The translations under genes were made by a program, and so were the position numbers. Positions 32,153 to 40,519 of a DNA stretch of 59,083 bases are shown in pieces; position 1 is the stretch's first letter; each line of letters opens with the position of its first letter. The notes beneath the pieces are model-generated. The model worked only from the letters and a program-made list of their open reading frames with translations, was not told the DNA's origin and searched no databases. The stretch comes from a virus. Lineage: Duplodnaviria > Caudoviricetes. The stretch spans positions 1 through 59,083 of the IMG/VR virus record IMGVR_UViG_3300042568_000868, one strand, 5' to 3'.

Positions 32153-32223
32153 GGCCCTGTCGTCTATGGGTAGGACGCCACACTTTCAGCGTGGAAAACG
32201 AAGTTCGAGTCTTCGTGGGGCTA
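32153..32223 (+). tRNA. tRNA-Glu(TTC)
   Basis: Cloverleaf: GGCCCTG/TGGGGCT acceptor, D arm, CT-TTC-AG loop, CGAAG-TTCGAGT-CTTCG T arm; several G-U pairs and one anticodon-stem mismatch. Confidence 0.8.
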
Positions 32224-32234
32224 CAATAAAACAA

Positions 32235-36958: not shown

Positions 36959-37378
36959 ATGAAGACAGGAAAACTCACTAATGCTCAGTATCAAAAACTG
37001 AAAAGACATTTCTCCAAAACCAATGGATTTGAGTGGTCTATGGATGATTTTATTAAATCAACTGTAATATCTATACCACATGGATTTGTCGTGCTTGATA
37101 TATATGATGAAGTTGAAGAGCTACCTAGATTTGGAAACTTAACATTCATATATGTTGATGAGAAATACAGAGGACAAGGTATTGGTGCTAAACTGTATAG
37201 AAAAACTATAGAATATTTCAAATCAGAGAGCCTTTCTGAATTTTATCTTACTATAGCATACAACAATCCTAAATCACTTGCTTTAGCTTTTAAGTTCAAG
37301 GCAGATGTGTATGAATTCTGTACATATTTTTCAAACGGAATGCCTGGGTATAACATAAAAATCAAAACTAATCAGTAG
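36959..37378 (+). CDS. GNAT family acetyltransferase
   Basis: Acetyl-CoA motif A: IYVDEKYRGQGIGAKL; NPKS. Confidence 0.85.
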   Translation: MKTGKLTNAQYQKLKRHFSKTNGFEWSMDDFIKSTVISIPHGFVVLDIYDEVEELPRFGNLTFIYVDEKYRGQGIGAKLYRKTIEYFKSESLSEFYLTIAYNNPKSLALAFKFKADVYEFCTYFSNGMPGYNIKIKTNQ

Positions 37379-37383
37379 TAGAG

Positions 37384-37866
37384 ATGAAAAAGGAACAAGA
37401 AGAGATATGTATGTCTCTTATTTATGCTGCAACAAAAAAAACTGAAGTATATAATAGTATGAATGAGCTATTCAAAGGATTAGATCAGAAAATACTAAGA
37501 GAATTCGTATCCGCAAATTGGGATTCTCACTATAAAATTCAAGTTATCTCACTTGCAAATAAGACTTATCAAGAGAAATTCAAGATAGTCGATGGATTGC
37601 TCCGTAAAAAAGAAAATGGAGAAATCAAAAGAATTAAAATACATTTAATAAAATCAATCGAAAGTAAGATTCCGTTAGATGTATATGACAAAATTATTGG
37701 TCCGAAATTAAGCAGAAGAGAGCTTCTGAGAGGAACTGAAGTTGAGTTAGTAAAGTTTAGTTCTGATAGAATTAAATTAGAAGTAAAATCTCCTTCAGAT
37801 TTCTATGTGCATAATTTCACCATATGGGATTTAAACGACAGAAAAGGAATTTCAATAGTAATTTAG
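37384..37866 (+). CDS. Hypothetical protein
   Basis: ORF in operon. Confidence 0.6.
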   Translation: MKKEQEEICMSLIYAATKKTEVYNSMNELFKGLDQKILREFVSANWDSHYKIQVISLANKTYQEKFKIVDGLLRKKENGEIKRIKIHLIKSIESKIPLDVYDKIIGPKLSRRELLRGTEVELVKFSSDRIKLEVKSPSDFYVHNFTIWDLNDRKGISIVI

Positions 37867-37869
37867 CTT

Positions 37870-38265
37870 ATGAAAAATATAGTAAAATTAATAGTGCTAA
37901 TACTTTTTATGTGTGTACCGCAAACATACGCAGAAAAGAATATCAAGCTATACAAGGCTTTTGAGTTTAAAGACATGGAGAACTGTGAATATATTCCTGA
38001 ATTCAAACAATGCAATCTGCTGCTTGAATATGATGTAGGGAATCATACATTCACGACATATTTGTCGAAACACAATATAGTAATAAGTAATTTCACTCAC
38101 ATTCGCTCATACAAGAAAAATGATATAACCTATTCAGATTATTATGGTGATTTGCCAGATGGGCAAAAACAATTCATAACATTTGCTCGGGTGGAAGATT
38201 CGCGGAACAAATATATAATATTATTTGATAACGATTGTTCGAATATCATATTGAGAGTAGAATAA
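37870..38265 (+). CDS. Secreted hypothetical protein
   Basis: Signal peptide-like N-terminus. Confidence 0.6.
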   Translation: MKNIVKLIVLILFMCVPQTYAEKNIKLYKAFEFKDMENCEYIPEFKQCNLLLEYDVGNHTFTTYLSKHNIVISNFTHIRSYKKNDITYSDYYGDLPDGQKQFITFARVEDSRNKYIILFDNDCSNIILRVE

Positions 38266-38333
38266 CATACGGCCCGTTAGGCTGTTTCATGGACGAACAA
38301 GACCGGGCTAGCATCATGCCCGCACCTCCACCA
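38266..38333 (+). ncRNA. ssrA: Permuted tmRNA, acceptor (3') piece
   Basis: GAC-CGGGC-loop-GCCCG T arm then CACCTCC-A-CCA; complementary to GGGGGTG at 38419. Confidence 0.75.
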
Positions 38334-38337
38334 AAAC

Positions 38338-38410
38338 TACTATTTAGCTCAGTTGGTAGAGCATCCGCAGTAGGGGAGTGTCACCAGTTCGAATCTGGTA
38401 ATGGTAGCCA
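38338..38410 (+). tRNA. tRNA-like gene with shortened anticodon arm, in tmRNA intervening segment
   Basis: TACTATT/AATGGTA acceptor + GCCA, canonical D arm (GCTCAGTTGGTAGAGC) and T arm (ACCAG-TTCGAAT-CTGGT); anticodon arm only 14 nt, lacks U33. Confidence 0.7.
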
Positions 38411-38418
38411 CGCAATAA

Positions 38419-38577
38419 GGGGGTGAACAGAATTGATTGGCGTCAGGAGTGATTCAGATAGGACTGTGTACAACGATAAATGGCAACATTATCACAATCA
38501 GAAACTACGTAGGTCAAGTAGCCTAAAAGTTTCGCCCCAGTACGGTTTGCCGTGGCCTTCGATGAGCGCTGGGGACC
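38419..38577 (+). ncRNA. ssrA: Permuted tmRNA, coding (5') piece with tag (A)GNIITIRNYVGQVA
   Basis: GGGGGTGAACAGAATTGA 5' end; resume context ATAAAT-GGC at 38482; stop at 38524-38526; closing CCCCAG/CTGGGG hairpin. Confidence 0.75.
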
Positions 38578-38597
38578 TAATTTTAATCAGTAAAATT

Positions 38598-38951
38598 ATG
38601 ATACAAGTAATTTTAGCATTGTCAATAATTCACATATTAACCGCAATAATGTGTGCTATACTATTGACAGACATTGATGAATATGTATATTTAAATCTGA
38701 GAGATCAGAAAAATACATTTGGAACTCAAATTAGACTATCAAAGGAACTAGTTAGAAAAACATTTGGATTAAAGAGATTAACATATACATCATTCATTCC
38801 AATAATAAACATCATAGTATTGTATAAATCATTTAAATTTATATTCTCTATGCATAATCGTATGGAGATAGCAAGAGATATTGTTTCAGTTGGAAAGTCT
38901 CCATTGTCAAATTTTGTTAGAAAAATAAAGAAAACATGCAAAGCATTGTAA
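38598..38951 (+). CDS. Membrane protein
   Basis: ATG at 38598; two hydrophobic segments, FIPIINII motif; upstream extension in the ORF track overlaps tmRNA. Confidence 0.6.
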   Translation: MIQVILALSIIHILTAIMCAILLTDIDEYVYLNLRDQKNTFGTQIRLSKELVRKTFGLKRLTYTSFIPIINIIVLYKSFKFIFSMHNRMEIARDIVSVGKSPLSNFVRKIKKTCKAL

Positions 38952-39877: not shown

Positions 39878-39973
39878 ATTTATTATCGTCAAATGGCGGA
39901 TGGAAGAACGATAAGCCATAGATTCTTGGTTGAGTCTATGGTAACAAAGCTATCTAACCTTAATATACATAAT

Positions 39974-40519
39974 ATGAATGTAAAAGAAGAAGTAGAGAAG
40001 GCTAAAAATGGGTCAGAAAAGGCCTTTACTAATCTGTATAATGAATTCCAAAAGGTAATTTATGTAGCGATATACAATATAGTAAAAAACAAAGAAGTCG
40101 CAGAAGACTTAACATCTGAGACATTTATAAAGATTTACAAAAACTTACACAAATACACAAAAGACTTTTCATTTGTTATGTGGGCTAAAACAATTGCAAA
40201 TCATCATGCTATTGATTATATACGTAGCGGTAAGAATCAATACAACACTCAATCACTTGACGATGAGATGGCAAATGTTATAGAGATTTCTGATTATACA
40301 GATCCTGAAACAAGCCTTATAAACAAAGAGATGGCATTACTAGAAAACGATGCCATTAAGTCATTAACCAAAAGAGAGTATGAAATAGTAAAATTAAGAG
40401 AAGAAGAAATTCCATACTCCAAAATAGCGGAGGAACTTGGAGTTAGCATAGGGACTGTAAAGAGTTCTATTCACAATTATCGTAAAAAAATTAAAAAATA
40501 CATAACCAAAAAAGAATGA
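39974..40519 (+). CDS. ECF-type sigma-70 factor
   Basis: Region 2 (AEDLTSETF, WAKTIANHHAIDYIR) and region 4 (IAEELGVSIGTVKS), no region 3. Confidence 0.92.
   Translation: MNVKEEVEKAKNGSEKAFTNLYNEFQKVIYVAIYNIVKNKEVAEDLTSETFIKIYKNLHKYTKDFSFVMWAKTIANHHAIDYIRSGKNQYNTQSLDDEMANVIEISDYTDPETSLINKEMALLENDAIKSLTKREYEIVKLREEEIPYSKIAEELGVSIGTVKSSIHNYRKKIKKYITKKE

Follow-up and report, generated by a model that had tools for sequence, protein, structure and literature searches.

The window analyzed here, meaning the whole 59,083-bp stretch of DNA in IMG/VR record IMGVR_UViG_3300042568_000868, comes from a lake-water crAss-like phage, and its positions 38266 to 38526 hold a locus whose sequence supports identification as a circularly permuted (two-piece) transfer-messenger RNA (tmRNA) gene. 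The gene order is acceptor piece, 85-nucleotide (nt) intervening segment, and coding piece, all on the plus strand, and most of the intervening segment, or spacer, is taken up by a tRNA-shaped element. The record is estimated to be 57% complete. Its portal, large terminase, and major head proteins matched PHROG families, and its capsid protein is 70 to 77% identical to those of human-gut crAss-like phages, e.g., cr118_1 and cr50_1, the latter being Cohcovirus hiberniae (Crassvirales, Suoliviridae; NC_055868.1). Lake-water contigs from four other metagenome runs, representing four studies, are letter-identical to the window over 38267 to 38469, 38315 to 38472, and 38382 to 38532, and the contig from the fourth run (38150 to 38405) differs at two positions, both upstream of the RNA. 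Because these contigs are identical to the window over the RNA, an assembly error can be excluded, and the oddities of the locus described below are real sequence.

The acceptor piece (38266 to 38333) was delimited by its sequence, by alignment to the Rfam permuted-tmRNA model RF04321, by the match of a model built from relatives (R1, see below), and by comparison with 16 relatives. It starts directly past the stop codon of an open reading frame (ORF) at 37870 to 38265 and contains, in order, a TTAGG motif (38277 to 38281); the 3′ strands of helix 2 (CTG, 38282 to 38284; TCA, 38287 to 38289; GACG, 38292 to 38295; CAA, 38298 to 38300); a T arm (38304 to 38322) with the stem CGGGC (38304 to 38308)/GCCCG (38318 to 38322) and the 9-nt loop TAGCATCAT; the acceptor 3′ strand CACCTCC (38323 to 38329); the discriminator A (38330); and an encoded CCA (38331 to 38333). 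Between this CCA and the 5′ end of the tRNA-shaped element lie 4 nt, AAAC (38334 to 38337), presumably a 3′ trailer. The element itself (38338 to 38410; identified by ARAGORN, the Rfam tRNA model, and folding) spans 73 nt and likewise ends in CCA, followed by the 8-nt sequence CGCAATAA (38411 to 38418) that leads to G1 of the coding piece. The coding piece, defined through the tag stop (38419 to 38526) by its sequence, RF04321, and the tags of relatives, consists of the acceptor 5′ strand GGGGGTG (38419 to 38425), the D-loop analogue AACAGAATTGAT (38426 to 38437), the 5′ strands of helix 2 (TTG, 38437 to 38439; CGTC, 38441 to 38444; TGA, 38450 to 38452; CAG, 38455 to 38457), an ATAGG motif (38458 to 38462), and a short reading frame. 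This frame opens with the resume codon GGC at 38482, preceded by ATAAAT, and encodes the tag GNIITIRNYVGQVA (38482 to 38523) followed by the stop codon TAA (38524 to 38526).

The two pieces are joined by pairing. The acceptor strands CACCTCC and GGGGGTG match at all seven positions and include a G3-U70 pair (G 38421 with T 38327), whereas helix 2 is formed across the pieces by TTG/CAA, CGTC/GACG, TGA/TCA, and CAG/CTG. A G3-U70 pair combined with a discriminator A is the identity signal for alanyl-tRNA synthetase (AlaRS). An initial annotation, made from the letters alone, had placed a tmRNA 3′ end (to 38333) upstream of a 5′ end (38419) and had reported the 7-bp stem with its G3-U70 pair and discriminator, the shared helix 2, and the ATAAAT-GGC context with its tag and stop; all of these elements are present at those positions, and the tag was confirmed by translation. 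A branched hairpin, CCCCAG...CTGGGG, followed by a U-rich stretch (38535 to 38574), was predicted by folding and likely marks the 3′ end of the coding piece or of the transcript. Its fold z-score of -0.22 lends weak support, and a scan for promoter and terminator consensus sequences, which yielded nothing above shuffled sequences, did not call it; in L095, the nearest relative, a comparable hairpin precedes TTTT.

This gene is not reported by standard annotation. In the window, ARAGORN called two tRNAs and no tmRNA, and Rfam at gathering thresholds likewise returned two tRNAs only. With a relaxed threshold, RF04321 (tmRNA_permuted) produced a match at 38281 to 38526 that treats the tRNA-like element as one long insertion (37.6 bits; E = 5e-6 for 601 nt and 1.2e-7 for the whole record). 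Thus, of the two programs that the initial annotation had proposed as a check, ARAGORN was silent, and the permuted-tmRNA model matched over its full length but fell short of its gathering score of 47 bits. Sub-threshold RF04321 matches were also obtained in 6 of 14 ordinary control genomes, and because of this the match is weak when taken alone. The covariance model R1, for which 13 relatives but not the window were used and which is only roughly calibrated, matched the window at 38271 to 38465 with 41.6 bits (E = 5.8e-6), its sole match at E ≤ 1. The silence of ARAGORN and the low Rfam score are both explained by the T loop and the D-loop analogue, which are changed in the window (see below). 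Variants of this kind, escaping ARAGORN as well as the Rfam threshold, are missed by standard annotation. Close copies were also sought directly. A distant blastn search with 38230 to 38600 gave no match in a phage collection; a 15-base motif scan of viral contigs returned 82 stretches, a chance-like outcome, of which the two that were read (L160 and L186) are of the L095 type; and a 26-base gapped pattern, run against viral and metagenome contigs, retrieved L095-type copies only (L160 and L194, both identical to L095 over the stretch compared) and no second window-type copy.

Homologous genes are frequent among the phages related to the window by capsid. The capsid protein had 443 relatives in IMG/VR; the best 80 were retained, and the whole records behind 50 of these loci were searched. 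RF04321 exceeded its gathering score in 22 of these 50 records, R1 matched 30 of them at E ≤ 0.001, and 18 of the 23 records of at least 90% completeness had an RF04321 match at E ≤ 0.01. ARAGORN called a permuted tmRNA in 22 of 25 related loci, with the tags GNTFVTDYTALGAA, GNNFVTDYTTLGAA, GNTMFVTDYSCVA, GNYSFVTDYSCVA, GNYSFVTDYSYVA, GNFYVTDYTRIAA, and GNNVNFFDYTLKVA; the tag of L095 (record G001, capsid 89% identical) is GNNTIQINNYVGLMSA. All of the relatives' tags open with GN, and are encoded from GGC AAY onward behind an A/T-rich hexamer; most of them also contain DY or NY close to the C terminus and have A as the last residue. In the window, the tag frame is intact along with its resume context and stop, and all three resemble those of L095. 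Furthermore, the locus is syntenic with that of L095, the ORF adjoining the L095 tmRNA being 32% identical over 159 amino acids (aa) to the window ORF at 37384 to 37866. Judging from these sequence comparisons, the window tmRNA is a member of a family frequently found among crAss-like (Crassvirales, Suoliviridae-like) phages.

The alignment across Crassvirales that had been suggested at the outset bore out the conservation of the acceptor pairing, helix 2, and the tag frame. In an anchored comparison of 17 distinct sequences (the window and 16 distinct relatives), seven different acceptor stems occur (CAGCTCC/GGGGCTG, TACCTCC/GGGGGTA, CAGGTCC/GGGCTTG, ATGCTCC/GGGGCAT, ATTCTCC/GGGGAAT, ATCCTCC/GGGGGAT, and, in the window, CACCTCC/GGGGGTG), each of which pairs at 7 of 7 positions and keeps G3-U70; G1-C, G2-C, and G3-U are invariant in these sequences, and the stem as a whole covaries. 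Standard pairs make up 93.7% of the cells of a 21-row alignment that was fitted to the model, and so leans towards it, compared with 36 to 55% when the partners are slid. Compensatory changes, affecting both sides of a pair, were found in 21 of 24 pairs, including all 12 pairs of model helices 1 and 2, and the observed values were reached in none of 500 shuffles. RNAalifold, applied independently to five short-spacer relatives, recovered the same four helices, with compensatory changes in 15 of 24 pairs. Over the columns compared, the window shares only 58 of 97 positions with L095, yet standard pairs occupy 22 of its 24 paired sites. Six pairs differ from L095 on both sides with pairing kept; three of these lie in the T stem, two belong to helix 2, and one is in the acceptor stem. 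In L083, L084, and L098, the start of the acceptor piece was seen by eye to pair with bases after ATAGG; this pairing was not found by eye in the window, whose subclade comprises two distinct sequences, the window and the L095 type.

Could the pairing between the segments and the short ORF nevertheless be coincidental? The RF04321 score below the gathering level and the similar matches in control genomes would be compatible with chance. However, R1 independently matched the same place, homologous tmRNA genes are syntenic in relatives, and the helices covary; on this sequence evidence, chance resemblance is effectively refuted. We consider it probable that the window locus is a structurally maintained permuted tmRNA gene with a non-decoding tRNA-like spacer, including the processing and tagging proposed below.

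The spacer had been described as almost entirely a CCA-ending tRNA body, a description that holds for its shape, 73 of the 85 nt being tRNA-like, but not for a normal tRNA, the anticodon arm being 3 nt short. The element scores 46.3 bits against the Rfam tRNA model (RF00005; gathering score, 29) and folds into a cloverleaf with an intact 7-bp acceptor stem, D arm, and T arm (TTCGAAT), a discriminator G, and intact tertiary-contact positions. Only 20 nt lie between the D stem and the T stem, leaving 14 nt for an anticodon arm that needs 17, and the minimum-energy fold of this arm has a loop of only 4 nt, AGUA, on a 5-bp stem that contains a G-G mismatch. In the Rfam tRNA alignment, the element has 8 nt where the model has 11, and a high-depth contig from another organism, carrying a homologous tRNA-like sequence, has 3 extra nt exactly in the anticodon arm. 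Among 121 bacterial matches to the 24-mer that covers the D arm and the first anticodon-stem strand, the 12 commonest arms, accounting for 103 matches, are all of the 5+7+5 type. The 24-mer is shared by tRNAs for Val, Thr, Ala, Lys, Ile, and Phe, among others, and the parent isotype is therefore ambiguous. A scan of viral contigs in IMG/VR found no further copy of the element's anticodon region.

ARAGORN labels the element tRNA-Tyr (gta). This label is unreliable because the arm is 3 nt short by the Rfam alignment, the homologous contig, and the bacterial arms; the arm drawn by ARAGORN has 2 mismatches in 5 pairs and an A instead of a U before the anticodon. If the label is nonetheless taken at face value, together with the Rfam score, the encoded CCA, the intact tertiary contacts, and a canonical tRNA-His at the same place in relative L100, the spacer could be thought to hold a working decoding tRNA, either Tyr (GUA) or one with an unusual loop, and the locus would be a tRNA gene nested in a tmRNA gene. 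The short arm, its mismatched pairs, the 4-nt loop, the 5+7+5 layout of the 12 commonest bacterial arms, and the lack of a second copy in the IMG/VR scan all speak against such a tRNA, and we consider it very unlikely. Because the anticodon arm has collapsed to a 4-nt loop, the element is most likely non-decoding; we interpret it as either a handle for processing or a relic.

The tmRNA itself departs from its relatives in the elbow, a feature that the initial annotation overlooked: the T loop is 9 nt long and lacks TTCGA, and the D-loop analogue has a single G. All 16 distinct relatives are canonical in this respect, with a T loop of 7 nt (TTCGANN) that a G-C pair closes and with TGG(A/T)TTTGAC as the D-loop analogue. 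In the window, the loop TAGCATCAT is closed by C-G, and the D-loop analogue is CAGAATTGAT, with GG reduced to G. The T loop and the D-loop analogue are the two partners of the elbow contact, and the alteration of both could impair use of the RNA by RNase P, SmpB, or the ribosome. This divergent elbow is the chief ground for doubting full tmRNA activity, which we regard as uncertain.

Other observations, too, weigh against an active gene. Apart from the failure of ARAGORN to call it and an RF04321 score of 37.6 rather than 47 bits, the window, at about 57% completeness, does not encode SmpB. Within the nearest clade (capsid, 84 to 89% identical; records G001 to G007 and G050, with loci L002 to L005, L007, L016, L020, and L023), the tmRNA is present in G001 alone, i.e., in one of eight records, and in the complete, terminally repeated record G004, R1 found no match and RF04321 scored 19.9 bits. 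The tmRNA is thus accessory in this clade. Finally, in L106/L217 (record G016, 1531 to 1990), the spacer is 433 nt long and holds a 100-aa ORF preceded by a 38-aa ORF, with the acceptor piece and the coding piece intact and the tag GNTMFVTDYSCVA. Because this spacer holds an ORF, the site evidently tolerates any insert, and a tRNA located there need not function.

Taken together, the non-canonical loops set against 16 of 16 canonical relatives, the sub-threshold score, the silence of ARAGORN, the arm that is 3 nt short, and the absence of the gene from most of the nearest records, the complete one included, could mean that the locus is a decaying relic, a tmRNA without a canonical elbow enclosing a tRNA without an anticodon loop, neither of which functions now. 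Decay is hard to reconcile with the retention of 22 of 24 pairs at about 60% identity to L095, with six double compensatory changes, three of which fall in the very T stem that bears the odd loop. Moreover, the tag frame, resume context, and stop have all remained intact and L095-like, both CCA ends are encoded, and the acceptor, D, and T arms of the tRNA-like element are perfect. We regard a relic as unlikely. A different role for an RNA whose elbow has diverged while the acceptor stem and G3-U70 are retained would be that of a decoy or inhibitor, competing with host tmRNA for SmpB, AlaRS, or ribosomes without performing trans-translation. A precedent of this kind is the tag-less tmRNA-like RNA of mycobacteriophage DS6A, described in PMC11915505 as inhibiting the endogenous tmRNA in Escherichia coli. 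A pure decoy would have no need of the tag frame and resume context that the window shares with its relatives, and direct evidence for a decoy was not found; the chance of this role is slim indeed.

An origin of the 9-nt T loop as an intron scar was considered, and no evidence for it was found: the T arm of the window is contiguous, and no Intron_gpI match reached the gathering score in it. In five gut-type relatives (L218 to L222; records G022, G042, G015, G039, and G045), the T loop is split by an insert of about 700 nt. The split falls after GAGGGTTCGAT, and the gene resumes at TCCCTCCAGCTCCAC; in L218, the region lies at approximately 792 to 1566. The insert matched the Rfam Group I intron model in all three loci scanned (L218, L219, and L222; 66.9 to 69.3 bits against a gathering score of 50) and carries, on the opposite strand, an ORF for a 169-aa HNH endonuclease (Pfam HNH, E = 3.4e-13). 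By sequence, the tmRNA genes of these relatives are thus permuted and intron-bearing at once. The table of tmRNA forms in PMC11915505, as far as it was available, lists the permuted and intron classes separately and none in which they are combined.

CCA is encoded twice at the window locus, in the tmRNA acceptor piece (38331 to 38333) and in the spacer element (38408 to 38410). The tmRNA genes of the relatives do not encode CCA, reading A-C-N-N instead, and the window's own tRNA-Glu (32153 to 32224) also lacks an encoded CCA. A high-depth bacterial tRNA-like contig from the same lakes does encode it. These differences hint that the block of CCA and tRNA may have been captured from a bacterial source.

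The spacers of the relatives vary in length and content. Lengths of 17 to 216 nt occur in the first set examined, and the spacer of L106/L217 reaches 433 nt; the L222 spacer contains the start of a small ORF similar to the one in L106/L217. An Rfam scan of 17 relatives located a spacer tRNA in L100 alone, the canonical tRNA-His already mentioned (63.1 bits). In 12 of these 17 loci, by contrast, a tRNA match lies directly 3′ of the coding piece, for example, at 1755 to 1826 in L087 and at 1397 to 1466 on the minus strand in L085. For the element adjoining the coding piece, ARAGORN gave a two-base "tt" anticodon, set in a 6-nt loop, at 12 of 25 loci; at 5 of the 25, it reported Lys (ttt). In L098, the 3′ element appears by eye to be reduced to a minihelix of acceptor stem plus T arm, and in the window and L095, the hairpin and U-rich tail stand where the relatives have their 3′ tRNA-like element. 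The spacer is thus permissive, and modules of tRNA shape whose anticodon loops are irregular occur repeatedly next to the pieces of the tmRNA.

A tentative explanation for this recurrence, and one that we regard as possible, is that the tRNA-shaped modules with crippled or missing anticodon arms serve as processing punctuation for the two-piece tmRNA, the rebuilt elbow of the window being a working alternative to the canonical one. The modules would sit either in the spacer, as in the window, or after the coding piece, as in most relatives and, in the form of a minihelix, in L098. By cleaving at the 5′ end of each module, RNase P would set where the tmRNA pieces terminate on their 3′ side, and the modules would be kept for their shape rather than for decoding. 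If the modules are indeed processing handles, they would represent a compact natural case in which tRNA punctuation serves a functional RNA that is split, and if the elbow is active, it widens the range of possible shapes of the tRNA-like domain.

For the maintained gene that we favor, we infer from the sequence the following course of co-transcription, cleavage, charging, and tagging. A single precursor transcript would run from upstream of 38266 to the hairpin at 38535 to 38574. RNase P would release the 5′ end of the tRNA-like element by a cut at 38337/38338 and expose G1 of the tmRNA by another at 38418/38419, and exonucleases would trim the 4-nt AAAC and the 8-nt CGCAATAA trailers back to the encoded CCA ends, leaving two tmRNA pieces held together by the 7-bp acceptor stem and helix 2. 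Host AlaRS would charge the RNA via G3-U70 and A73. The SmpB partner is proposed to be that of the host because the window encodes none; with it, the RNA would enter stalled ribosomes and add Ala followed by GNIITIRNYVGQVA. That one precursor gives rise to three functional RNAs, with retagging by the phage peptide, is plausible.

Permuted tmRNA genes and the model RF04321, which merges RF01849, RF01850, and RF01851, are described in PMC11915505. The gene order of the window is that of the two-piece tmRNAs of Alphaproteobacteria and some Betaproteobacteria and Cyanobacteria, with which it also shares the two-strand tRNA-like domain, G3-U70, and a tag ORF with a resume codon and stop. In contrast to these bacterial genes, the window copy is phage-borne, scores below the threshold, and has a 9-nt T loop, an altered D-loop analogue, and a tRNA-shaped filling of the spacer. 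Phage-borne permuted genes are known as well: in PMC9004378, ARAGORN results suggest a two-piece form for 53 of 133 unique phage tmRNAs, most of these being from marine or aquatic phages. As far as that paper describes them, Methylophilales phage Melnitz and the pelagimyophages resemble the window in that a lytic aquatic phage carries a permuted ssrA and no phage SmpB is reported or found. Their genes are of the alphaproteobacterial type, were found by ARAGORN, and in some cases come with a glutamine riboswitch, whereas the window belongs to Crassvirales, its gene is not seen by ARAGORN, and a tRNA-like element occupies its spacer.

Within Crassvirales, RefSeq annotates a "transfer-messenger RNA, SsrA" in cr50_1, cr10_1, and cr125_1. 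The gene of cr50_1 (NC_055868.1, 39374 to 39869; locus L225) belongs to the same tmRNA family as that of the window, scores 60.3 bits with RF04321, and is followed by a tRNA after the coding piece. The RefSeq crAss-like tmRNAs come from gut phages and have canonical T loops; the window, by comparison, is from lake water, with a capsid about 74 to 77% identical, a divergent elbow, and a tRNA-like spacer. A literature search found no paper that discusses Crassvirales tmRNAs, although the supplementary tables of PMC11915505 may list some, as well as further kinds of spacer content. The terms SsrA, transfer-messenger, and tmRNA do not occur in the text of PMC7886860 (Yutin 2021), and in the available portions of PMC6235969, PMC12291355, and PMC13503771, tmRNA appears in method, count, or reference mentions.

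The initial annotation knew of no described tRNA in a tmRNA spacer but did not exclude one. There are two such cases, namely, the tRNA-His of the related phage locus L100 and a tRNA-Ala reported in 2025 (PMC11915505). The latter paper describes, as "a unique feature," an intact tRNA-Ala in the intervening sequence of one permuted tmRNA, from GCA-2688965 sp002688965.2, a nominally archaeal metagenome-assembled genome; this tRNA takes the same place as the window element, after the acceptor piece and before the coding piece. By that description, the tRNA-Ala is intact and high scoring, which sets it apart from the window element with its lack of a usable anticodon loop. The locus, with its probably non-decoding tRNA-shaped spacer and its divergent elbow, is thus an unusual form of a type of gene that phages are already known to carry.

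Phage tmRNAs have rarely been studied, and they raise the question of why a ribosome-rescue RNA should be carried by a lytic phage and which tag such an RNA adds. The present comparison shows a whole crAss-like lineage that carries a permuted tmRNA, and the gene is a hot spot of RNA-level tinkering in this lineage, with a tRNA, a tRNA-like element, or an ORF in the spacer, an intron with its HNH endonuclease, and RAGATH RNAs as neighbors. RAGATH-22 was found approximately 400 to 900 nt upstream of the tmRNA in 10 of 17 loci (L082, L085, L087, L090, L096, L097, L102, L103, L108, and L225; 120.5 to 194.6 bits), and RAGATH-9 was found approximately 20 nt upstream in three of the 17 (L098, L100, and L101; about 155 bits). 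RAGATH matches also occur in L217 to L222; at Rfam gathering thresholds, there is none in the window.

Of the protein-coding genes around the window tmRNA, few could be assigned a function. No related locus was found with the neighboring 286-aa protein, and most flanking ORFs received no function from PHROGs or Pfam. The exceptions are an acetyltransferase-like ORF at 36959 to 37378 (PHROGs/Pfam) and, about 1.4 kb downstream of the tmRNA, a 208-aa ORF (39893 to 40519) that matches a PHROG family of RNA polymerase sigma factors (phrog_1740, E = 8.8e-26).

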